Of a stretch of 64,000 nucleotides of DNA, positions 25,462 through 58,693 are shown in pieces (position 1 is the first letter of the stretch; each line of letters opens with the position of its first letter). This DNA is from Mustelus asterias (lineage: Eukaryota). The position numbers and the translations under genes were made by a program. The notes beneath the pieces were generated by a model that ran no database searches, was not told the DNA's origin, and was given only the letters and a program-made list of their open reading frames with translations. Where the stretch lies: the NCBI RefSeq assembly GCF_964213995.1, contig NC_135805.1, forward strand, positions 68,758,001-68,822,000, given 5' to 3'.

Positions 25462-25577
25462 GGCTGGAATTTTACCGTCCCTCCCACCACAGGAATCGGG
25501 GCGGACCATGGAAAGGTCAGTTGAACTTGGGCAGGATTTTCCAGCTTTGGAGCGAGTGAGGCCGGAAAATCCCACCT
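25462..25577. mobile_element. MITE (3-bp TSD TAT)
   Basis: Ends GGCTGGAATTTT / AAAATCCCACCT, with TAT on both flanks; same family as 22270-22396. Confidence 0.7.
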
Positions 25578-25977
25578 TATGACTCTATGACTGTTAAACT
25601 CATCCAGATCACAAAAGTTAGAGATAGACTGGGAGTCCATGGATCAACTTAAAAATCTATTTGATGGAACTGTTCCATATAATACTTGCAACCCCAGATC
25701 TCCAAATGGAGGAACAATGGAGGGCTCCATGTAGAGAGCCCTCCGCTGGGGGAGCCCGCTTGATGTGAAGACGAAAAACTGCAGTGTTGATGCAAAGCAT
25801 TTTGCTTCCATTGGCACTGTAATTATAATGTACAGTGCGCCCTGCATCCAGAGTTAAGGACCAACCATACATCAGAGTGAATGGAAAAAACTCCCAGTCT
25901 GCTTTGCTTAAAATAAACAGGGTAAGAAGTCTCACAACACCAGGTTAAAGTCCAACAGGTTTATTTGGTAGCAAATA

Positions 25978-26014
25978 CCATAAGCTTTCGGAGCGCTGCC
26001 CCTTCGTCAGATGG
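25978..26014 (-). ncRNA. Minimal hammerhead ribozyme motif (mirror copy)
   Basis: Exact reverse complement of 26731-26767 in the left arm. Confidence 0.75.
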
Positions 26015-26730
26015 AGTGGATATCTGTTATCCAACAGTGCACAGACACAGAAATCAAGTTACAGAATACTAATTAGAATGCAAATCTCTACAGCCAGCCA
26101 GGTCTTAAAGGTACAGATAATGTGGGTTGAGGGAGCATTCAACACAGGTTAAAGAGATGTGTATTGTCTCCAGACAGAACAGCGAGTGAGATTCTGCAAG
26201 ATCAGGGGGAAAGCTGTGGGGGTTACTGATAATGTGACATAAATCCAACATCCCGGTTAAGGCCGTCCTCATGTGTGTGGAACTTGGCTATCAGTTTCTG
26301 CTCAGCGACTCTGCGCTGTCGTGTGTCGTGAAGGCCGCCTTGGAGAATTGTATCATGTATCAATACGGGCATTCAGCCTTGGATCTTCAGGTAAGCGTTC
26401 TCCAAGGCGGCCTTCACGACACACGACAGCGCAGAGTCGCTGAGCAGAAACTGATAGCCAAGTTCCGCACACATGAGGACGGCCTAAACCGGGATGTTGG
26501 ATTTATGTCACATTATCAGTAACCCCCACAGCTTTCCCCCTGATCTTGCAGAATCTCACTAGCTGTTCTGTCTGGAGACAATACACATCTCTTTAACCTG
26601 TGTTGAATGCTCCCTCCACCCACATTATCTGTACCTTTAAGACCTGGCTGGCTGTAGAGATTTGCATTCTAATTAGTATTCTGTAACTTGATTTCTGTGT
26701 CTGTGCACTGTTGGATAACAGATATCCACT

Positions 26731-26767
26731 CCATCTGACGAAGGGGCAGCGCTCCGAAAGCTTATGG
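26731..26767 (+). ncRNA. Minimal type I hammerhead ribozyme motif
   Basis: CCAT-CTGACGA-A-GGGGC-AGC-GCTCC-GAAA-GC-TT-ATGG: stem I CCAT/ATGG, core CUGANGA...GAAA, stem II GGGGC/GCTCC, palindromic AAGCTT in place of stem III. Confidence 0.75.
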
Positions 26768-27129
26768 TATTTGCTACCAAATAAACCTGTTGGACTTTAA
26801 CCTGGTGTTGTGAGACTTCTTACTGTGCTTACCCCAGTCCAACGCCGGCATCTCCACATAAAATAAACAGGAACAGGAGAAGGCCATTCAGACCTTTGAG
26901 TCTGATATGCCATTCAATGAGCATGATTGCTTCGTACCACAATTCCAGGCATGTTCAGGGGATGTATCATGTTCAAACAGTCACTCAGCATTGCAGACTG
27001 CTGGGAGTGGCAATGCCCTGTTGGAGTGTGGTCCAGACTATGGCACCAAGGGCAAGGGACTGTACAGTGGGGAACAGTAAATTGTAAAAAATGAGTTGTT
27101 AAAGGAGATTCCATAGTTAGAGGGACCCA

Positions 27130-29040
27130 TGTATCAATACGTCATCCATGTGACCCAGAATTCATGCAAGCCCGTAAAAGATTTGACACTTTTCTTTGAA
27201 ATATCTCTGCTGCCGATGTTATTCCAATCGGTAAGGTGTTAAAACAGAATTTTCCAATTGCTGTTCTGAGAATTGTGAGAATCTTGAACTTCTCTTCTAG
27301 TGGTATTTGCCAGAATCCGCTGTTCAGTTCGAATTGAGAGAATACTGTTATCTCCCTAAATTAGATAAGCTCTCATCTACTGATACCATTGGATGGACTC
27401 CTCTTTTCACAGTTTTACTGAGTTGTGTGAGATCAACACATATTCTTATGAAATCATTTGCTTTGGAACCGGTATCATCCCTGAGCACCAACTCACTGTG
27501 ACACAACCAGAAAGAATGCTTTCTAAGGTGCATCTGTAAAAGTTGCTGAGAGTTGTAGCTGACATGCCAAATTTCCTTAGTCTTATGAGAAAGTAAAGTT
27601 TATTTATTAGTCACAAGTAAGGCTTCCATTAACACTGCAATGAAGTTACTGTGAAATTCCCCTAGTCACCACACTTTGGCGCCTGTTCAGGTCAATACAC
27701 CTAACCAGCAAGTCTTTCAAACTAGAGGCGTTGGTGGATCTCTGCCTTCCGCTAGCTTCACTTAATTCTTTAATCTCTCCTAAGGATGTTACCTCAATGT
27801 CTTGTGAATCTTCAACTTCATGGACTCTGGTTCCTTTTAAACTCACTGACTTTTACAGCTCAGCCTTCAAAACCATTATTGTGATGAAACTCATCTCCAA
27901 GCTCCGTGGCCTGGGCCTCAGCTCCTCCCTCTGCGTCTGGATCCTGAACTTCCTAACCCACAGACCACAATCAGTAAGGATAGGCAACAACACCTCCTCC
28001 ATGATCATCTTCAACACCGGTGCACCACAAGGCTGTGTTCTCAGCCCCCTACTATACTCCTTATGACTGTGACTTATGACTGTGTGGCCAAATTCCCCTC
28101 CAATTCGATTTTCAAGTTTGCTGATACCACTGTAGTGGGTCGGATCTCAAACAATGATGAGACAGAGTATAGGAATGAGATAGAGAATCTGGTGAACTGG
28201 TGCAGCAACAATAATCTCTCCCTCAATGTCAACAAAATGAAGGAGATTGTCGTCAACTTCAGGAAGCGTAGTGGAGAACATGCCCCATGTCTACATCAAC
28301 GGGAACAAAGTAGAAATGGTCGAAAGCTTCATGTTTATAGGTGTCCAGATCACCAACAACCTGTCCTGGTCCCTTCCATGCCGACACTATAATTAAGAAA
28401 GCTCACCAACGCCTCTAGTCTGAAAGAGGTTTTGTCCTGTTCCTCCTGGTCTGTGTAGCATTTTTGAGGATGGTTTAGAACTCTCTTGTTTAACCATTGT
28501 TCAGCATCTGAACAAACTGAAACTGCTGCTCCTGTATATACTTTAAAGTGTGTCCTGTGACCTTCTACCAAGATCTCTGCCTTCCACTAGCTTCACTTAA
28601 TTCTTTAATTTTTCCTAAGGATGTTACCTCAATGTCTTGTGAATCTTCAACTTCATGGACTCTGGTTCCTTTTAAACCTTTTTCTTTTTGAGTGTTCTGC
28701 CCGTTTTTTTTCTGTGTGACATTCTGCCTGAAAATGTCCCAATCTTTTGCACCAATGGCATTGTATGTCTTTGGCAGGACAATTCCCATGTCCATGCCAT
28801 TTTCTTCCACACCTGCAACAGCTAGGCAGGGCTGCCGCCATTAATTGCTTTTTGTGCTGTATGTCTCTCCTTCTCCCTATTTTCCCTCTTTTATATCTGA
28901 CAAATTCAACTGTATCTGTAACTTTGGGATTCAGGCTGCCTCTCTCTACTCCGAATACGGATTGGTTTTGCCTCATATTCTCAACTTGCTTAATTAATTG
29001 AATCGCCTTTGCCAGCATCATGTTATCTCAGAACTGCAAA
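27130..29040 (-). mobile_element. Fragmented Gypsy LTR-retrotransposon gag-pro-RT interleaved with Rex1 and V-SINE pieces
   Basis: Zinc knuckles CCRCGRKWHGHGNC and CHWCKRLGHFQAEC, protease-like FKVYTGAAVSV, RT start IRICVDLTQLSKTV. Confidence 0.8.
27845..28417 (+). mobile_element. Rex1/Babar LINE RT fragment
   Basis: [61 protein letters not shown]. Confidence 0.88.
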
Positions 29041-32806: not shown

Positions 32807-32992
32807 ATGGTATTAATTTATTTTCTCTCCATTTTGGCTTTTCTGATGTTATGCCAAGGCGATTGCCCCAAGAGATGTGTTTGTGACTCTTCTAAATCGG
32901 TGCAATGCTACAGAGTTACGACCGTGCCCAAAGCTATTCCAACCGATACTAGAAAGTTATACCTCGGACACAACAACATCAAACAGCTGCGG
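32807..32992 (+). CDS. NEPN: Nephrocan coding exon 1 (signal peptide, LRRNT cysteine cluster)
   Basis: MVLIYFLSILAFLMLCQGDCPKRCVCDSSKSVQCYRVTTVPKAIPTDTRKLYLGHNNIKQLR: hydrophobic signal peptide, CPxxCxCxxxxxxxC cap, phase-0 donor CGG|GTGAGA. Confidence 0.9.
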
Positions 32993-34593
32993 GTGAGAGA
33001 AAGAAGCATAATGAGTTTGTCAGCATCATTTTACCTTAGTTTTTGTTAATAATCGCGTTATTGATTTGCGTTCAATGTCATGTATTTACGTTGCTTTATT
33101 TTGTATTGTTTAACTTTAAATTATTTATTGTTTTGTGCTTAGGTGTGTTGGGTTGCAATGCAATAGTTATTTTCATTTCTACGATCGTTTGTCTCTATTA
33201 CTGAGCAATTACTAAATTTAATCTGCGGATGAATTATAACCCAGTGATGATTTTGTGAATACAGTGAGAAGTCTGAGCGCGTCAGCAAGAGGTGAGGCAC
33301 TTAAAATGTGTGCAAGATGTAAATACTTTATAATGCGATTTCCCGTAAAATAATAAAATTACAAAAGATGCTGCTCCTGAAATCGCCTTGGACAAGTACA
33401 GTCTGCCCTGTAATTGCAGAGCGCGGAGTTTAGAGTTACACTGCTCGTAGATTTTCCGGTTTATATGCCGGAAGCAAACATAAACTAATTTTTTTTGGAA
33501 TCAGTATTGCATTCTCCTCTTTGCAAAACATAATACAATTCCCTTTGGAGTAGATGGATCGGTAGTTTCTTGAACTGTACCGTACAAAAGCGCTTCTTCA
33601 TGTTCAGGTGTTGGGACTGGATCAATGAGAGATGGAAGTGTTATCCGAATCCCAATGCTCTTATTATATCATAGTGCGTGTTTTGAAGATTATTAAATAC
33701 AGGAAACCAAAATTCTACCAAAATAAATCCAATCCTTTAGAGCTTTGATGCATATGCACTCACACAGAAAAGAAAATTGGCCTCATACTGTCTGTCTGTC
33801 CACTGACTTTCTATTCATGTTGTTACATTACTTGAATTGCTGCAACAACAAACACTTGGCTAAACTCTGCATCTATTGCCTTTCCTTCGCTTATACAGTC
33901 ACTTAGAATCATGGAATTTCTCAGCATAGAAAGAGACCATTCAGCCCATCATTCCTGGGCTAGCCACTAAAAAAATTATCAAATTAGTCTCACTCCCTTA
34001 GTCTCCCCCACTATTTATTCTGTACTTTTTTCATGTTAGAGGCATAATTACAATCCACATTGATGTTGAGGGTGAATGCAAATGGAGTGTTGGTTGCACA
34101 GGAAGGTGGAATCAGAGGACCAGAAATAAAGTGGGAGTAGGATGTATCTAGATTTGTAAACAAAGCTGTGGATTCAATACACTGAGTGACTGGGGGTGTG
34201 GAGTTTGGTCAATGGCAGTCAATCAGAATAGGGTTGATGGCGAAATGGCCAGTAATGTTTTGACTACACGAAGAAACATCCAACATCAAGCAAATCAGTC
34301 ACCTATGAGATCAACAGTGTGCCAGAAGAACAGTTTGTATAATCTGCAGTAACCTTGGGTACAAGGTTATGTTTAGTGAATACAGTTTAAATTATGTGTA
34401 GTCTCTATCATCACCTTCATTCTGTTTTACATTATTTTCTAGTTAATAGACAGAAATTTCCCCTCCCCAAGAATTGTATACTCAAATGATGCATGTCTGT
34501 CCTTTGCCAGGCACTCCCAAAGTCAGTAACTTTTAAGTTAATGAGGTAATAGATCTGCTCAAATTTCAAATAATACCAAGACCTAATAAATGG

Positions 34594-34915
34594 GATAAAA
34601 GCAAACTACTGTAGATGTTGAAAACTTGAAATAAAAACAGAAAATGCTGGATGAACTCAGCAGGTCTGGCAGCATCAGTGGAGAGAAACAGAGATAATGG
34701 TCGGAATGTTATCACCATTCACGCCGGCGGGATTTTCCCATCTTGCTGCAATGAATGGAGATTTCTCCTGATTCGCTGCAGAGAGAGTGTGGTGGGAACA
34801 GCAGGTAAGATCATGCCCAATGTTTCAGATCTAAATGATCCTTCTACAGAACTGAAGAAAAGTAGAAATGTATAGAATAGATGCTGCCAGACCAGCTGAG
34901 TTTATCCAGCATTTT
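34594..34915. mobile_element. Penelope-like fold-back remnant (family 2) with an inserted MITE
   Basis: Arms AAAATGCTGGATGAACTCAGCAGGTCTGGCAGCATC and GATGCTGCCAGACCAGCTGAGTTTATCCAGCATTTT are inverted repeats. Confidence 0.65.
34699..34818. mobile_element. MITE (3-bp TSD AAT)
   Basis: Degenerate ends GGTCGGAAT / ATCATGCCC; AAT at 34696-34698 and 34819-34821; internal GGCGGGATTTTCC. Confidence 0.6.
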
Positions 34916-35469
34916 TTAATATATGGGACTTAGAATTTTGACCCATTAGCACTTGATAAACCCTTTGGCATTTGCCTCTCATCAATGTACTTAGTTACAA
35001 CAGCAGAATGGATATGTCCCTTGATTATAAAGTAAAATTAATTCAGAAGAAAACTAGCTTCACACAATAAAATATGCATTGTGTGGATATTATAAAGGTC
35101 AAGAAAACTCAGCATAAGGTTGAAAGTTCATGTAGACTTATTCCAATTTCTTTTTTCATTTTCTTTCTTTAGTTTAAGTCCCATCTCCCTCTTTGAGTCA
35201 TTTTGTCCATGAGACCTACCTCCTGCTCACTTGACCTATTTCCACTAAATTGCTGCAATTTCTGGGACTTTGTTTGGTTTATGTCAGATTTTCATTGTTT
35301 GTAATTTTATTTACCCCCCCTGCCCCCACCCCCCCCCCCCCCCCCACCCCCAAACACACCCCAATGTTGTATTCATGGGATTAGAAAAACAAGATTTAAT
35401 CCTGGTATGAGGTAATTATTGCAAACTGAAATCACACTTTAGCATCTATCTTGTATTGATGTTTTGCAG

Positions 35470-36371
35470 GCATCAGATTTTGGCGGACTTTATGGCATTG
35501 AAGAACTTGCATTATCTTCATGTGGAATGGAAGCAACAGAAGCTCACACATTTTCAACACTGACTAATCTGAGAACCTTAGAGTTATGGAAGAACAAGTT
35601 GAGGAATGTTCCCAGTAAGCTTCCCTCCAATGTGGAGGTGCTGAAACTGGGTAACAATCGGATTCAGGCCTTGTGCGAAACTGACTTTGAAGGCTTGGCA
35701 AAACTGAAAATCCTTGATCTTCAAAACAATAAGATCTCCACAATTCGTTCTAGTGTTTTGTCATCTGCTCTTAGACTAGAAAGTCTTGTTTTGGATAGTA
35801 ATAGCCTTGAGTTGTTATCAGGACCATTAAAACTTCCTTATCTGAAACGTTTAAGCATGCAAAATAACAGGCTGTCTTCTCTACCATCAAATTTCTTTAG
35901 TTTCTTACCATCACTGCGCTTTCTCAGTTTATCAGGGAATACATTTTGCAAGATTCCAAAAAATATGCCACCTTTATTGTGGTCTTTAAAGATGGACAAA
36001 AATCTGATCAGTGAATTGCAGATTCAAGACTTAAACTATCTTAATCACCTCTTTGAGCTCTCCCTTTCTGAAAATCAACTTTCTACAGCAAATGATGCAC
36101 TGGCTTTGACAAACTTATCCGTAGTGGACCTGTCTAAAAATCAACTCAAAGCAGTTCCTACTCGACTGCCAGCACAATTACAAATGTTGGATTGCAGTCA
36201 CAACTTCATACAAGAAGTTACGCTGCAGGAATTTGCTGGATTGTGTGAGCTGAAACATTTGTTTCTGGAATACAACAACATTACAGTTATTGATGTAGAT
36301 GCACTGCAGCACTGTTTGCAACTTTCAGACCTAGCGTTGGAGCGAAACCAATTGTCATCCTTCCCAAAAGG
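35470..36371 (+). CDS. NEPN: Nephrocan coding exon 2 (leucine-rich repeats)
   Basis: Acceptor TTGCAG|GCA in phase 0. Open 902-nt exon of tandem LxxLxLxxNxL repeats (LELWKNKLRNVPS, LDCSHNFIQ, LALERNQL) matching nephrocan. Phase-2 donor GG|GTATGT. Confidence 0.93.
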
Positions 36372-39300
36372 GTATGTTTGTATTATTGGGATGGGAGAAG
36401 TACAAAACTAAAGTTCTAGAGGTGGCATTGTTTTCCAAGTATCAAGTATTTTTGTTCCTAATTAACAGTCAAGCAGAAAATAATAGCTTTGGAATTAAGG
36501 GTTTCTCTCTGTTTTAATACCACTCATAATAACAATTGCAGCAAACAGGGTAGCAAGGTCATGTGCAATCTCAGGGAATGGTCATCCCTACCCTTTTACA
36601 AATTATGCCAGGTATGGGAAGACGTTTCATGGTATGGCCCAGTGAATTTTCAGTGGTGGAAAAACCATCAATGAACAAAAGCTGCATAAGTGGAGGGACC
36701 TTTAGGGAAAGAACTTTAGGCACACATGAGGATGTGAAACCACGTCATGCTCTCTATTCCCTGGTCATATTGCTCATTAAAATTGAAAATGGGAAAATCT
36801 TACAAACGACTGAAGAGGAAAGTTCAAGTTCACAAGGCGTGGAGAAATGAGCAGAGGACCTGCCCTTAGGCTGATCACTATTAAGTCCAAACTCTACCAG
36901 TGAACTAAAAACTTAAATGAGATCAATTATTAAGGAGATCCAATAACTTAAGAACTTCTTTCCAGCAACCTTCATTTACATGCAGTATGCCTTAGTTAAC
37001 AAAAGTATCAACGGAAAATATCAAGATGTCTTTTCAAAATATCATATCATTGATGCCATCCATATGGCCCTCGCTCCACATATCACATCCCACGTGAGAC
37101 GTCCTCTGAAGTTCTGACAAAGAGACTCCATCCCATTAGCTTGTATTTTTTTCTGTTCAGTTGAAGAGATAAATGCTTTGTGATTCAAGCCTTTTAGCTT
37201 CAGATTTTCAATAGTTGCAACTTGTTTTCATTCCTTTTAAACATTTACTTAGGTACTATTTACAACACAGTACTAATGTAATAAAAACTAAGGAAGTGGG
37301 GTTGATTGGGTAGAATACTGGTGCATGGAGAAAAATGAAAAAGAAACAACAATATAAGTGAACTGTTGTTTTTCAATCCAGCTTCATTCACATAATGCAG
37401 GAGACTGACAAAGCAGCACTCAGGAGGAGAGATAGTTCCTCTTAGCTTAGCTAATGCATCGCACCCAAAATGGACCATAAAGAAACAGGCTTTCATCAGA
37501 AGACAAATCAAGACTCAGCACAATATTCAGTTCAAGTGCCAATTTTGGGATGTGGAATGGTGGGGGAGCAGTGCAGGGAGGAGGCAGAGATTCAGAAGTC
37601 ATTATTGTTATTTCACAGGTTATGAAGACAAATGTATTATCAGAAATTCATCACAGTATCGAGAAGCTACTGGAGGTTAATCATTTCACAAAGGGCATTC
37701 TGTTGGAAAATCATAGCAGTGATGAAGGGGCACTTCTCAAAATACATCACAATGGATTGCATTGTCAGGAGGAATGGAAAATTCTCACAGCATGGATAAT
37801 TTAGGGGCTGGAGAAAGCATTCAATGAGAGGTGATTCAAAAAATTTCATTTTGGGCAGGGGTGGGGAGGCTGACCTGGTGGATTTGACGAAACTAAACAA
37901 TAAGGTGATGAGGAAAGGGTTGGGCCAATAATGGGGGAAGTGCCTAAGAATGAAAATCTACAGTACTTCACCAGTGGATGAGTACAATGTGATTCTCTTA
38001 AGTGTGAGGCAAAGAGAAAGAAAGCAGGAAACAATTAGATGTTTCATTCACCAAAATATTAATTGCTCATCAAATTTCTCATCATTATTCAATCCACATC
38101 CAAATTTTCCTGTAGCTCGAATATTTTGAACAGAACTAACATTGATGCAGAGGCATCTAGTAATAAGAGGAAGGAACTGCCATGTATTTCCAAACTTTAG
38201 TTAAACCTGATTTGATGGGCAGCTATGAGAAGTTCCTTCTGCGAGAGTGAACTAGTCACATAACATGGCATCACAGCACCACCTACAGACACAACCCAAA
38301 TGGAATATTAACAAATGTACATCAATTTTATAATTTGATGATGTAGTCATGGCTTCCAGTGGCAGAATGTTGTAGATAAGCTTGATCAACTTCCTTGGAA
38401 TGTTTTTGTTCTTTGTACATCTAACAGTGAAAAGAATCATTTTATGAAAAGCAAAGCCTATTTAATATCATTATTTTTTTTTGCACTTTATTACAAGTTA
38501 CACAAATTTCTTTATGTGAAATAATTCAGTTGTCGATGTCAAAAATGTGAATAGTTTCAACTGATACTTGACTGGATTACCTAACATTCTGACAATGGTG
38601 AGTATAAACTTGCTGATGTGTTTCTTCCCTTTGCCTGATCACTCAGCAAGCTTATCCAATAAGTAGCTTCGTGCAATCTACAGTTTGTATGATTGTTTTT
38701 ATTCTTTCCTGGGATGTGAGAGTTGCTGGAAACCCTAATTGCCCTTGAGAAGGTGGTGGTGAGCTGCCTTCTTGAATTGCTGCAGTCCTTCTGGTGCAGG
38801 TACACCTGCAATGCGGTTAGAAAGGAAGTTAATTGATCCCAGCTAAGGTGAGAATAGGATTCCTGCAGTTGTCTTTAAGTCCATGGTTTAGAGGGTGGAA
38901 ACTCCAACCAGGATCTTTTGGGACCCATCGCGGGAGATGCGGCAGTCCATTGGCTTTCGGTGGGACCGGTCGATCCTAGTGGTGGATGAGAGCAAAAAAT
39001 CCCACACTCAGTCAGATCTCAGGATCCTGAACAGTGACCTCTCTTGGAAGGAGAAAGTGTAGCTGTCGAATGAGGACATAATTAAGATTGCTAAAATGCT
39101 TTTTGACAATTATTGTCAAGGTTGACACATGATTGGGTGAAATACTGTACAAAAATGTGCCAGCAAAAAAACCATCAGGAGCAGTTGGAAAGGAAGAAAT
39201 ATTGGCAAAGACAATTTTTAAAAGTTAGGTAGATTCATGCATTTTTAGGTTTAAAATGGTACACTATTTTCTCAGCATTAGCTTAGATTGTTACTGTCAG

Positions 39301-40489
39301 AAATATTATTTTAAATTTTAAGATATCCCAAATCGCAGTTGGGTGACGGAGTTCAAATTCAAGCCACAACTGTCATTCATATTCAAACATGTCTCAAGAG
39401 ATGAACTTGCTATCTGAGGAGATGGAGAGATGTCAGAGGTTTTACCACAGTCATTCAACTATACCTAGTGACTGCTCAACTAAGAAGTGTGACAAACTCT
39501 GGCAGATGTCCATGAACGTTTGCATAATTCACTTGAGAAGAAGATAACACATACTGCTTCAGCTTACCTGGAAAACCTGTATGTACCCAATTGAATACTT
39601 TGAGGACTGCAATAGCATTTCTGCTCTTAATTTAAGAACATCCAAGATTTTTCAATGTATGAAGGTTGTAATTGCTATGATTAAAACAAATTCTCCAAAT
39701 TCAGCTTTTAAAATGATTAAAATTACTTTTCAGAGATGATAATGTAGATGAAATGCATTTTCAATGTTCCAGGGAACTGTTTTTGAAAAATGTTGTAAAT
39801 TGTGGTTCTCCCTCAACCTGTCTTTTAAGAATAGTTGTAGGAGGTGTATAAAGAGAATTTTCTCAAGGTTCTTCATGAGAAAATCTGCAGAAACCCTGGG
39901 ATATCCTGCATAAACAGAGTTTCAACAAAAAGTTGATCATCAGGATTATCTCTGAAGAAATTCCCACATTAATATTTTGAGTGATTGTGTAAATCTGTTG
40001 CTATATCAATACTTTATCATTTCCAGGCTGGATTTCTGAAATTCCCTTCTCCCAAGTCTTCTAATCACCATCCTACAGTTTTAAAAGATTCTGCTGCCCA
40101 TATCCTGTCCCACACTAATACCCCGCACATCATTCCAAATATTGCCAAATGACCCATGTGCTCCCTATAACTGCACATTCATTTCAAAATCCTTTCCTCA
40201 TTTACAAATCCCTCAACTGCCGCTATGATATGGTGCAACTTATGTCTCATTCTGAGACCTATTGTCCTCCAACTTTGGCTTTTTGTGAGTCCTCCCTTTC
40301 CCCATAATTCATTGGTAGTAGCAAACATTTTTGGCATCTGTACTTAAAATGGATACTGTCTATGTAAATATGTTGCGCTATAGTGACTAATGCTGGTGTT
40401 GTAGAATTGTGTATTCACCATTAATTACATACTTCTATCTCATTCTGAAACAAGATGGCAATAATTCTTACCTTTTGTCCTTTCCTCAG

Positions 40490-40952
40490 GCTTCCTGATG
40501 CTCTTTTAAGGCTAGATCTGAAAGGAAATAATATTACAGACATTTGTAAAGAACCAGTGGAAAATTTGAAGCGGCTGCGAGTTCTGAATCTACGTAACAA
40601 CAGGTTATCATCGCTTAACCCTGATGTATTTGGATATTTTCCTCGTCTCAGGTGGCTCTATCTGGATGGTAACCCCTGGAACTGTACATGTGACCTCATG
40701 AAAATCAGAGTCTTATTGACTACAAGACAGCTGGAGATCAAAAGTGGCTACTGTGCAACTCCAGCCTATTATCAAGGTGAGACCTGGCTATCTTCCACCA
40801 AGATTCTGAACAGTTGTGGATATAACACAATGCATGGTGTAAAAGGAAAAGCATTTCTTGAAATTGCTGCAAAGATAGCACAGGGGGATGATCGCTCAAA
40901 TGTTAATGGTCCAACTGATAATGAAGATTATTATGACTATGATGCAGACTAA
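40490..40952 (+). CDS. NEPN: Nephrocan coding exon 3 (last LRRs, LRRCT, acidic tail, stop)
   Basis: Polypyrimidine acceptor CCTCAG|G in phase 2, compatible with exon 2. LYLDGNPWNCTC LRRCT, acidic end DNEDYYDYDAD then TAA. Spliced CDS 186+902+463=1551 nt = 516 aa plus stop. Confidence 0.93.
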
Positions 40953-41296
40953 AAATCAATGACCAACTTGCCAGTTACTTTAAATATCCTGATTGTGTGT
41001 AATGTGACATAGATAATCATTGTTCTATTGTAACCTGAATTATATGTTTGCAGTTTTTTAGTCTTTTCACTGATTGTTAAATCTTATGTACACTTCTAGA
41101 ATAGGTGAACATGATTTTAAGTTCTGAATCCTTTCTTTGTTGATCTACAATTCAAATTGAGTGATTTACCTCTGTTCCTGCATGAATTAGTAAGATTTTC
41201 ATTAGCATTGACCAATTTCCGCTGTGCAGAAAACAATGAATAATCAAAGATATTCATTTGGTATAACTTTTATAACAGGATAATGTTTTGACTAAG

Positions 41297-45701: not shown

Positions 45702-45822
45702 TGATGTGGAGATTTACAAGAGCACTCCATCTGACGAAGGAGCAGCGCTCCAAAAGCTAGTGGCGTTTGCTACCAAATAAACCTGTTGGACTTTAACCTG
45801 GTGTTGTTAGACTCCTTACTGT
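45702..45822 (+). mobile_element. Short Penelope pLTR insertion (family 1) with a mutated hammerhead
   Basis: 13-bp TSD CTCTAGTCTCTTA (45689-45701, 45823-45835); CCAT-CTGACGA-A-GGAGC-AGC-GCTCC-AAAA-GC-TA-GTGG at 45727-45763. Confidence 0.85.
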
Positions 45823-47568: not shown

Positions 47569-48192
47569 CTCTCTTCCATCTTCTTCCATTAGGAAGAGGA
47601 TACAAAAATGTGAGATCATGTACCAATCGACTCAAGAACAGCATCTTCCCTGCTGCCATTAGACTTTTGAATTAACCTACTTATATTAAGTTGGCCTTTC
47701 TTTACATACTAACTATTCTGCATCCTCTCCTTTCCTTCTCCCCTTTGTACTCTATGAACAGTATGCTTTGTCTGTATAGTATGCAAGAAACTACTTTAAA
47801 GTTAAAAAAATGTATTTATTAGTCACAAGTAGGCTTACATTAACACTGCAATGAAGGTGCTGTGAAAATCCCCTAGTCATCACACTCCGGCACCTGTTCG
47901 GGTACACTAAGGGAGAATTTAGAATAGACAATGCACATAACCAGCGCGTTTTTCGGACTGCGGGAGGAAACCGGAGCACCCAGAGGAAACTCACGCAGAC
48001 ACGGGGAGAACGTGCAGACTCCGCACCCCAACAGTGACCCAAGCCGGGAATCGAACCCGGGTCCCTGGCACTGTGAGGCAGCAGTGCTGTGCCACCGTGC
48101 CGCCCTGAAAATACTTTTCACTCGATACCAATACATGTGACAATAATAAATCAAATAAAAAATGTGACAATAACAAATCAAATCAAATCAAA
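47569..48192 (+). mobile_element. Rex1 3' end interrupted by a type-B V-SINE (~47795-48105, - strand)
   Basis: LFHLLPLGRGYKNVRSCTNRLKNSIFPAAIRLLN plus 3' UTR, resuming after the SINE as ATACTTTTCAC...CATGTGACAATAATAAATCAAA; GAAA.TACTTT on both sides of the SINE. Confidence 0.82.
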
Positions 48193-48244: not shown

Positions 48245-48595
48245 TATATAGGGGGCGCTAGAGCCCTGGCTGCCAGGCACTTAGAGCGGAACATTGCTCT
48301 TGTCTACTAGGTTGTGAACCAATCCTTGCGCTCCATGTGTTGTTTCAAGTCAAAGGTGAAAGTTAATAATTTTTTAACCTCTCCTCTGAAAAAAAAGTGA
48401 AGATGGCGCCCGGCATGTTGGGGAGTTGGCACTGATTCACAGTCATTCATAAAGAGCAACTTTGTTATTTGGCAAGCTGGCTTTCCCTCTTCACCTCCCC
48501 CAATGTGAATCTTTCAGACGGAAGTCTGTTTGTTTTTCGTTGTCCGTTTTAATTTCCCCCTCTTCCCGCCCTCCGTGCGGTTGCATGGTAAGGTG
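48245..48595 (+). promoter_or_regulatory. NUS1 promoter / 5' UTR with CTCF-like, YY1 and ETS motifs
   Basis: TAGGGGGCGCTA (48249-48260, CTCF-like core), AAGATGGCG (48400-48408, YY1) and CGGAAGT (48519-48525, ETS/GABP) upstream of a CpG-rich first exon. Confidence 0.55.
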
Positions 48596-48917
48596 ATGGC
48601 ACTCTTTGAGTTGGTGTGGAGGGTACTGCACACCGTGCTGTGCCTGCACCGGACTCTGTCGGCCTGGCTGCAGAATGGAATGTGGGCCTGGAAGCGCTGG
48701 AACCCCGCGAGCCTGGCGTTCGCCTTCCAGGACGCCAAGAACAAAGGCAAGAGCCGGCGCGCGCGCTGGCGCTCGGACGGCCGCCACCTCAAGAAGCTGC
48801 CGCTGCACCTGGGGCTGGTGGTGACCGAGGAGGAGAGCAGCTACACCGACATCGCCAACCTGGTGGTGTGGTGCATGGCCGTGGGCATCTCTTATGTTAG
48901 CGTCTATGACAACCAAG
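48596..48917 (+). CDS. NUS1: NUS1 (Nogo-B receptor, cis-prenyltransferase subunit) exon 1
   Basis: [21 protein letters not shown]...[42 protein letters not shown] matches NgBR. Phase-1 donor G|GTGAGG. Confidence 0.96.
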
Positions 48918-48991
48918 GTGAGGGGAGGAGGGTGTCGCTGCCGAGTGGGACTCTGCACTGTCGGTCTGTGTGTGTCTGTGCATAAACTCGT

Positions 48992-52349: not shown

Positions 52350-52515
52350 TCATGATATGGAGATGCCAGCATTGGACTGGGGTAAACACAGTAAGAAGTC
52401 TAACAACACCAGGTTAAAGTCCAACAGGTTTATTTGGTAGCAAAAGCCACTTTTGCTTTTGCTGCCAAATAAACCTGTTGGACTTTAACCTGGTGTTGTT
52501 AGACTTCTTACTGTG
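52350..52515 (-). mobile_element. Penelope-derived mini-palindrome (family 1)
   Basis: ~60-bp inverted arms CACAGTAAGAAGTCTAACAACACCAGG...CCTGGTGTTGTTAGACTTCTTACTGTG plus the extension tail. Flanking direct repeat CTGTGTTGTACGCGGGG at 52333-52349 and 52511-52527. Confidence 0.85.
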
Positions 52516-58483: not shown

Positions 58484-58693
58484 TACAGTAAGAGGTTTAA
58501 CAGCACCAGGTTAAAGTCCAACAGGTGTATTTGGTAGCAAAAGCCACTCGCTTTCGGAGCCTTAAGCTCCTTCTTCAGGTGAGCTTAAGGAGCTTAAGGA
58601 AGAAGGGGCTTGGGGCTCCGAAAGCTTGTGTGGTTTTTGCTACCAAATAAACCTGTTGGACTTTAACCTGGTGTTGTTAAACCTCTTACTGTA
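58484..58693. mobile_element. Penelope-derived palindrome (family 1) with hammerhead remnants on both strands
   Basis: TACAGTAAGAGGTTTAAC...GTTAAACCTCTTACTGTA inverted arms. - strand 58581-58545: CAC-CTGAAGA-A-GGAGC-TTAAG-GCTCC-GAAA-GC-GA-GTG. + strand partial: GAAGAAGGGGC.....GCTCCGAAAGCTTGTG. Confidence 0.85.

Follow-up and report, generated by a model that had tools for sequence, protein, structure and literature searches.

A fold-back insertion of a Neptune-type Penelope-like element in a shark genome and the probable origin of its inverted ends

Introduction

The window analysed here is a stretch of 64,000 nucleotides from the genome of the shark Mustelus asterias. At 25909-26871 it carries an insertion with two inverted arms, one of them extended by a short tail, and a hammerhead motif on each strand. 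The locus raises the question of how such a structure is made and what part the hammerheads have in it. Inverted pLTR ends with a tail of 30-40 bp on a single end are known from Pen2 and Pen2a of Adineta (PMC3846280), from the work of Craig et al. (PMC8557442) and from Penelope of D. virilis (PMC2377424), and the same papers contain the hallmark on which the original prediction relied, namely that inverted pLTR ends with a short extension indicate a Penelope element. Minimal hammerheads in pairs, one on each strand and 100-700 bp from each other, are likewise published (PMC4209133). The layout and the opposite-strand hammerheads are already in the literature, and the useful content of the insertion is its record of how the inverted ends of Penelope-like elements (PLEs) form. 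Complex tandem and inverted PLE structures have been ascribed to 'still undefined features' of the cycle (PMC8557442), and the later steps of insertion remain unvalidated (PMC11167929).

Structure of the insertion

The coordinates of the insertion are collected in Table 1. The two arms are 426 nt long each and differ at four paired positions (26128/26617, 26184/26561, 26259/26486 and 26278/26467); a 426-bp inverted repeat at 99% identity is far above chance. All four derived differences (4/4) lie in the tail-less arm. The 426-bp arms, the 50-nt spacer, the extension of about 35 nt and the 13-bp TSD described earlier were all re-measured, with the four mismatches as the only arm differences. 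The layout given in that description stands; what it lacked is the protein-coding part of the arms and the patch in the centre that derives from the flank. Part of the insertion is coding: the inner 125 nt of each arm, together with 33 nt of the spacer, specify the C-terminal end of a GIY-YIG endonuclease. The spacer (26348-26397) is hence element-derived over 33 of its 50 nt, and only 17-21 nt are foreign. The TSD is given as 12-13 bp, because the T at 26859 also continues the family tail. One contig from run X19 equals 26835-27448 with zero differences, which makes an assembly artefact at the right junction improbable; the element side of this contig is only 24 letters, and it covers the right junction only.

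Table 1. Features of the fold-back insertion and of its right flank, in positions of the window
Feature	Positions	Strand	Remark
Left TSD, 13 bp	25909..25921	+	Same letters as 26859-26871, 13/13
Tail-less arm, inverted 5'-truncated element end (endonuclease C-terminus and pLTR)	25922..26347	-	
Minimal type-I hammerhead motif, minus copy	25978..26014	-	Matches the plus copy; 0 arm mismatches inside
Junction patch, foreign core 26348-26364	26343..26367	+	Three overlapping direct right-flank matches (9, 10, 14 nt)
33 extra coding element bases, by which the tailed arm is longer	26365..26397	+	Match to parent copies starts at 26365
Last 51 codons and stop of the RT+GIY-YIG ORF	26367..26522	+	Peptide also terminates the 892-aa parent ORF
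Tailed arm, paired part	26398..26823	+	0.24% from the nearest other sampled copy
Minimal type-I hammerhead, plus copy	26731..26767	+	Stems I/II, core, palindromic AGCU replacing stem III
35-nt tail	26824..26858	+	Reaches the ATG of the ORF in full-length copies
Right TSD	26859..26871	+	First base common to the tail
Flank template, 10 nt, of junction bases 26349-26358	26963..26972	+	
Flank template, 14 nt, of junction bases 26354-26367	27128..27141	+	
Possible flank template, 9 nt, of junction bases 26343-26351	27268..27276	+	Weakest of the three

The junction patch is fully tiled by its three direct matches (9 nt at 27268, 10 nt at 26963 and 14 nt at 27128), which overlap one another and the arms by 3-5 nt. 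Matches of at least 9 nt within 500 nt of right flank cover 25/25 nt of the patch; the best of 1,846 control tiles covers 12/25 nt, and none comes close. The 14-nt match exceeds all 62 control flank pairs, while the 9-mer alone is weak. As in TINS, the patch is an insertion of at least 5 nt repeated from flanking DNA. It likely records the stitching of two separately made cDNA copies and, by analogy, looks like several brief rounds of synthesis that started at the left cDNA end and used the strand of the opposite side as template.

Identity and abundance of the element

The insertion is a dead, 5'-truncated, head-to-head Neptune-type PLE. Copies in the same genome with RT and GIY-YIG domains end in the same sequence, which agrees with the Penelope identity proposed earlier, and the nearest named proteins come from sharks (84-93% identity), as expected of the proposed shark origin. 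The original prediction had suggested a search for an autonomous parent, and copies with an uninterrupted RT+GIY-YIG frame are indeed present in the genome. The protein search gave 54,394 first-look candidates, of which 101 were scored and 20 chosen for long frames. Among these 20, four loci (L143-L146) contain the full ORF with its ATG immediately behind the tail end, and in L145 an uninterrupted RT+GIY-YIG ORF of 892 aa terminates in the peptide of the arms. Domain matches were RVT_1 (E 9e-9) and GIY-YIG; the latter, at E 3e-4, fell slightly short of the curated cut-off in the L002 fragment. L145 and L146 are laid out as inverted pLTR, direct pLTR, ORF and pLTR. The one-end tail of 30-40 bp, an optional feature of EN+ PLEs, is 35 nt long at this locus.

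Neptune elements are defined by a CX2-5CxxC linker and by CCHH in the C-terminal EN, a combination that excludes Penelope/Poseidon, Naiad and Hydra. In the parent ORF the linker reads CHSNLCKTC, and the equivalents of GIY and YIG enclose two Cys and are followed by two His. Like the Neptune clade, the element has a single ORF, a DKG motif, a YIDD RT, a CX4CxxC linker, a C-terminal GIY-YIG with CCHH and a vertebrate host. We therefore call it Neptune-type, an assignment that draws on motifs and host and not on a tree against named Neptune/Nematis references. A spliceosomal intron is an optional feature of EN+ PLEs; a look for introns in four runs of other organisms, guessed to be RNA, gave 0 GT..AG among the joints shown (15/16). 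Shortly before the ATG, the pLTR has donor-like and acceptor-like splice motifs at 26388-26397 and 26824-26837.

The genome contains 1,998 exact copies of the 36-nt hammerhead, and 4,342 and 10,886 copies of two sister motifs. Among 300 listed motif hits, a hand count of pairs at most 4 kb apart gave at least 58 head-to-head pairs against one tail-to-tail and one tandem pair. An arbitrary sample of 40 stretches of 10 kb (400 kb), taken at round coordinates on large contigs, held 22 insertions, 12 of which were head-to-head by a mechanical pairing rule; in three of these the arms match weakly or over a short length only, and the pairs are maybe separate insertions. Extrapolation from this sample gives about 200,000 insertions (127,000-306,000) and up to 110,000 fold-backs (57,000-193,000). 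The exceptional status given to the insertion earlier is thus not supported: with 12/22 head-to-head in the arbitrary sample, the fold-back is the commonest form of insertion, and the one at 25909-26871 is ordinary, one of very many truncated copies.

A second copy of the junction at 25909-26871 was not found among 38 matches (28 scored candidates) or in the other fetched loci, and the 63 fold-back pairs described below differ pair by pair in arm lengths, junction and TSD. Although the search was non-exhaustive, the one-off junctions in these 63 pairs speak against a MITE-like self-propagating unit. A non-LTR retrozyme was also rejected, the arms being inverted and only one same-strand pair within 4 kb occurring among the 300 listed hits.

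Other fold-backs were seen on the way. The window itself contains two more, of related subfamilies, one at 52358-52515 with tailed and tail-less ends and a 14-bp TSD, the other at 58485-58692 with both ends tail-less and a slippage-like centre. In L124:1873-4470 and L157 a fold-back of another subfamily is nested in or beside one of the subfamily found at 25909-26871. Three further loci (L153:2093-6965, L147:2134-7798 and L154:2240-6483) are fold-backs whose arms measure 1.9-2.6 kb and are 99-99.8% identical; multi-kilobase palindromes with most of the ORF thus arise by the same process.

Ends and junctions of the fold-backs

The junction survey included 72 loci, that is the window and 71 loci chosen for the exact motif in both arms. 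Eight gave no simple pair and one was dropped as a tail remnant, leaving 63 pairs. In 61 of these simple head-to-head pairs one end was tailed and the other tail-less, and exact TSDs of 11-14 bp were present in 54 of the 61. Neither arm is systematically longer (the tailed arm in 14 pairs, the tail-less in 15). Solo copies from the arbitrary sample ended equally often at the tailed and at the tail-less site, five each. By hand count, the hammerhead loop variant was common to both arms in 16 of 17 pairs.

The 61 junctions comprised 32 overlaps, three blunt joints, 19 inserts of 1-9 nt and seven inserts of at least 10 nt. Three of the seven long inserts match their own flank above all 62 control flank pairs (14 nt in the window, 22 nt in L100 and 54-65 nt in L110), and two match their own arms by 12-13 nt. 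The 70-nt insert at L194:2313-2382 had no match in its own 1-kb flanks or in the other fetched loci. Six of the 61 junctions (window 26365-26410, L092, L116, L118, L180 and L182) fall together at 426-465 nt from the tail-less end. They surround an 8-bp hairpin (26376-26407), a possible pause site or snap-back hot spot.

There were two observations on the relation between the arms. Firstly, the inner ends are coupled. In 32 of 61 pairs they lie within 40 nt of each other (10.3 expected, permutation maximum 20), and in 13 within 3 nt (1.8 expected); the expectations come from 10,000 within-subfamily permutations, which never reached the observed values, and arm lengths correlate with a Spearman coefficient of 0.64. 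In L110 (1587-1679 and 2565-2629) the arms are equal and the junction consists of 65 nt copied from flank 774-840 nt in, after which the first 27 nt of this piece are repeated in inverse orientation; the footprint of snap-back is clear. Secondly, the tail-less arms of the 61 loci carry 48 transversions against 24 in the tailed arms (p=0.006, in one test out of several made post hoc). Transitions number 60 in either arm, and all changes together 108 vs 84 (p=0.10). The transversion excess could mark an error-prone second copy. Private mutations common to both arms were considered and rejected, the variants being subfamily alleles (1,998 exact copies); shared-private sites numbered 0 in the pair at 25909-26871 and 7 in 18,887 aligned bases overall.

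The hammerhead motif

In the plus copy, stem I is formed by 26731-34/26764-67 and stem II by 26743-47/26751-55, with an extra A at 26742 and the triplet CUU. The hammerhead string reported earlier is unchanged on both strands (26731-26767 plus, 25978-26014 minus), and from the anatomy of the motif the putative cut falls after 26763, the position already predicted. All features of PLE minimal hammerheads are present, i.e., core, stems I and II, 9a, G10.1-C11.1 and the palindromic 15.2-16.2. A covariance-model search had also been proposed; with Rfam over 25500-27300 it gave no hammerhead family at E<=10. The Rfam matches mir-138, Va-907 and Atu_Ti3 were below gathering scores and reflect the fold-back or chance, mir-138 being the fold-back itself.

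Our harvest of the motif holds 329 copies, 64 of them distinct, the presence of the core being required for inclusion. Among the 329 copies, 9a is A in 328, 15.2/16.2 is GC in 325 and 16.1 is U in 327; position 17 is U, A or C in 328 and G once. The first pair of stem I is U-A in 41 distinct variants and C-G in 18, switching between lineages. In 13 hand-picked variants, 94% of cells are paired against 30-48% in slid controls, and three of nine stem pairs change on both sides, in few independent events. Pair-count measures of covariation did no better than shuffles (194 and 248 of 500). The stem I/II covariation foreseen in the original prediction thus holds in part: there are paired changes between lineages, but the events are few and pair counts stay at shuffle level. 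Since the core features hold in 325-328 of 329 copies and stem pairs co-vary, selection probably maintains the motif in lineages that are active.

The hammerhead region has unremarkable folding z-scores (-0.2 to -0.5), and folding stability is therefore no evidence for the hammerhead. A cofold of two 42-mers gave a stem-II-swapped duplex and not the active dimer, which energy models miss. The fold-back was modelled at -878 kcal/mol, against -802 for a fold forced to retain one hammerhead; the competition between hairpin and ribozyme that had been anticipated is thus predicted to favour the fold-back by about 76 kcal/mol. Dimers are thought to be needed for cleavage by PLE minimal hammerheads (PMC4209133; review PMC6765202). 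The ribozyme at 25909-26871 is likely silent or blocked, because it is without a tandem partner and because 426 nt of antisense would be transcribed first on either strand, as follows from the head-to-head layout. In an Anolis PLE, ribozyme cleavage required protein and was dispensable for insertion in vitro (PMC11167929). A solo tail-less copy at 45723-45822, with a 12-bp TSD, has lost G12 of its hammerhead (CAAAA for CGAAA), probably by CpG decay.

Age, transcription and surroundings

The arms of the insertion diverge by 0.95%, which is rank 27 of 61 around a median of 1.03%, and some ORF-bearing copies have arms 99.6-99.9% identical. The insertion had been dated as young; with a mid-range divergence it is young only in a relative sense. 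At 7e-10 per generation, a rate from another shark (CI 1.4-14.1e-10; PMC10587355), 0.47% per arm would correspond to several million generations, or to fewer if some of the differences are copying errors.

Family sequence is present as contigs in four runs of other organisms, guessed to be RNA, from which locus, strand and editing are unreadable. Coverage of the flank in runs X21 and X22, from which an insertion polymorphism might have been read, is thin. About 5.9 kb downstream of the insertion is the nearest coding exon found; it belongs to a three-exon secreted LRR gene at about 32807-41000 (+), with exons including 35443-36411 and 40449-40952 and with LRR as its only Pfam match; we take this gene to be nephrocan-like. 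A CpG-rich exon at 48509-48985 (+) has no Pfam match and presumably resembles the first exon of NUS1. Calls of tRNA were made at 21750-21823 (-), tRNA-Cys(GCA), and at 15553-15626 (-) and 48036-48110 (-), the latter two comprising one tRNA-Cys(ACA)-like copy and one tRNA-like sequence without type. Long endonuclease and RT frames, which we assume to be of CR1/L2 type, are found at 16851-19379 (+) and elsewhere, one with a single stop between frames of 256 and 585 aa.

Formation of the inverted ends

The reading we prefer, with a probability of about 0.6, is that both nicked target strands primed RT at two start sites and that the products were then joined by polymerase-theta-like patching. The endonuclease of the element would make staggered nicks 12-13 nt apart. 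The bottom strand of the right flank would prime at the tail end, with 459+35 nt copied, and the top strand of the left flank at the tail-less site, with 426 nt copied, both cDNAs being made from RNA of one source locus. Since two cDNAs of the same polarity cannot anneal, the 3' end of the left cDNA would be extended in short rounds on the bottom strand of the right flank, at successive template positions +397, +92 and +257 nt, re-primed each time by 3-5 nt of microhomology. It would in this way gain ACG, which pairs with the right cDNA, and the TSD would arise by gap filling. The hammerheads would then be passive cargo of the pLTR.

A point against this reading is that 4/4 of the arm differences at 25909-26871 fall on the tail-less arm, which together with the 48 vs 24 transversions fits an error-prone second copy. 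Two start sites bounding the tail, with both target strands cleaved and extended and with a predicted dimer, have been described for the Anolis PLE in vitro (PMC11167929). That element differs in being of the Poseidon clade with start sites inside the ORF, whereas the tail of the shark family ends at the ATG. The main text of that paper, as far as available, does not tie the two start sites or the extension of both strands to inverted insertions. For the family as a whole we consider it slightly more probable than the reverse that two-sided priming is the default integration, carried out by an RT dimer on both strands from two fixed start sites on one source RNA, with an end-joined centre. The centre would be closed by host or self end-joining via microhomology, snap-back or flank-templated patching. 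The coupled inner ends (13/61 within 3 nt) and L110, where a piece of flank is itself partly palindromic, show that one arm sometimes serves as template for at least the inner part of the other. Pure twin priming leaves this unexplained. The two cDNAs may both end where a single RNA ends, or one of them may snap back and anneal to the other, as seen in L110.

A tentative alternative keeps twin priming and lets the element's own RT, not a host polymerase, perform the template jumps and snap-back at the junction. The templates are distant (92-840 nt over the family). Those of the insertion at 25909-26871 lie 92-397 nt from the break, against a microhomology scan of 15 nt (PMC7165422), so the element's own RT could have jumped. 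Junctions made 5' by the R2 protein show snap-back onto cDNA or nearby target DNA (PMC11371274), and a bacterial YIDD RT is reportedly Pol-theta-like (10.1101/2022.03.14.484287); the RT of the shark element is YIDD as well. Against this, short AT-rich direct-repeat patches made in multiple rounds from the opposite end fit the description of Pol theta closely (PMC7165422), an enzyme known for multi-round templated insertions, both direct-repeat and hairpin-primed (PMC7165422; PMC4912351). The alternative differs from the preferred reading only in its last step, and sequence alone cannot separate the two.

It is doubtful that the second arm is made by self-priming, in which a single cDNA snaps back, is copied into the second arm and is cut or trimmed at the tail-less site; related ideas are self-priming (PMC3846280) and resolution of the tail by a nuclease (PMC8557442). 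The coupling of inner ends in 32/61 pairs within 40 nt (10.3 expected) speaks for it, as do the 65 nt of flank followed by a 27-nt inverse copy in L110, the transversion excess (48 vs 24) on the tail-less arm and the same variant in both arms. However, the arms are unequal in 29 of 61 pairs, with the tail-less one longer in 15, solo copies also terminate at the tail-less site, and transitions (60 vs 60) and totals (108 vs 84, p=0.10) do not follow the transversions. A hybrid, twin priming ended by snap-back in about half of the cases, covers both data sets.

We regard it as quite improbable that a hairpin RNA with a ribozyme is made from the unit, is edited by ADAR or cut by Dicer and matters as such, or that the unit spreads non-autonomously in the manner of a retrozyme or MITE. 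A read-through transcript would be predicted to form a 426-bp duplex, antisense small RNAs to PLEs are reported from a rotifer (PMC3846280), and collective dsRNA is plausible, since with fold-backs on the order of 100,000 in the genome many must sit in transcription units. Arm lengths, junction and TSD are, however, unique to each fold-back examined, coding sequence was found no nearer than the exon at about 32.8 kb of the window, and the hammerhead is without a tandem partner. Two independent insertions at one site, a later rearrangement or an assembly artefact are largely refuted, since PLE copies do nest in each other (L124, L157) but a single TSD brackets both arms, tailed and tail-less ends are strictly paired (61/63), 58 head-to-head pairs stand against one tail-to-tail and one tandem pair among 300 listed motif hits, the arms have four differences and the right junction is present in X19.

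The value of the insertion is that of a readable fossil of a PLE integration reaction that the literature still calls undefined. From the pairing of tailed and tail-less ends, the coupled arm lengths and the flank-templated centre follow concrete predictions that the in vitro PLE assay now available could address. They are of interest for the biology of the telomerase RT sister group and for attempts to engineer such elements. If two-sided priming is true, it accounts for the long-unexplained combination of an inverted pLTR with a single tail, and the genome carries on the order of 100,000 palindromes made by a retrotransposon. In such numbers they may contribute much dsRNA and cruciform DNA to shark genomes.

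Comparison with known systems

None of the papers listed in searches of the open literature proposes a two-sided priming model for Penelope in its title or abstract opening, subscription journals being outside this coverage. The closest parallel in mechanism is perhaps twin priming of L1 (10.1101/2024.08.27.596794), where both nicks likewise prime cDNA, microcomplementarity joins the products, lengths are correlated and local templates are occasionally used. In L1, unlike the shark PLE, chance decides at which internal site the second primer anneals, and there is hardly any overlap between the halves; the halves of the shark element copy the same sequence because its two starts keep a fixed distance of about 35 nt. 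TINS by Pol theta (PMC7165422; PMC4912351) resemble the centre of the fold-backs in their short, multi-round direct-repeat patches from the opposite end and in their hairpin-primed inverse repeats, but the shark templates lie 92-397 nt away, and up to 840 nt in L110, and the enzyme is putative.

The non-LTR retrozymes (10.64898/2026.07.22.740005) are also PLE-derived, short and hammerhead-bearing, but they form tandem direct arrays of a repeated unit, whereas the shark insertion is inverted and one-off. With the minimal hammerheads of Cervera and de la Pena (PMC4209133) the shark motif shares a short stem I, an extra base between 9 and 10.1, G10.1-C11.1 and a palindromic 15.2-16.2 without a real stem III; its stem II has 5 bp against 7-8 in theirs, and its putative cleavage triplet is CUU. 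Canonical insertions of EN+ PLEs agree with the shark form in the head-to-head, 5'-truncated inverted copy, the tail on a single end, the TSD and a pLTR made of the ORF end and UTR. The shark form differs from them in making up about half of all insertions and in a tail that ends at the ATG and not inside the ORF, and the insertion described here is nearly a pure palindrome because both of its halves are short.
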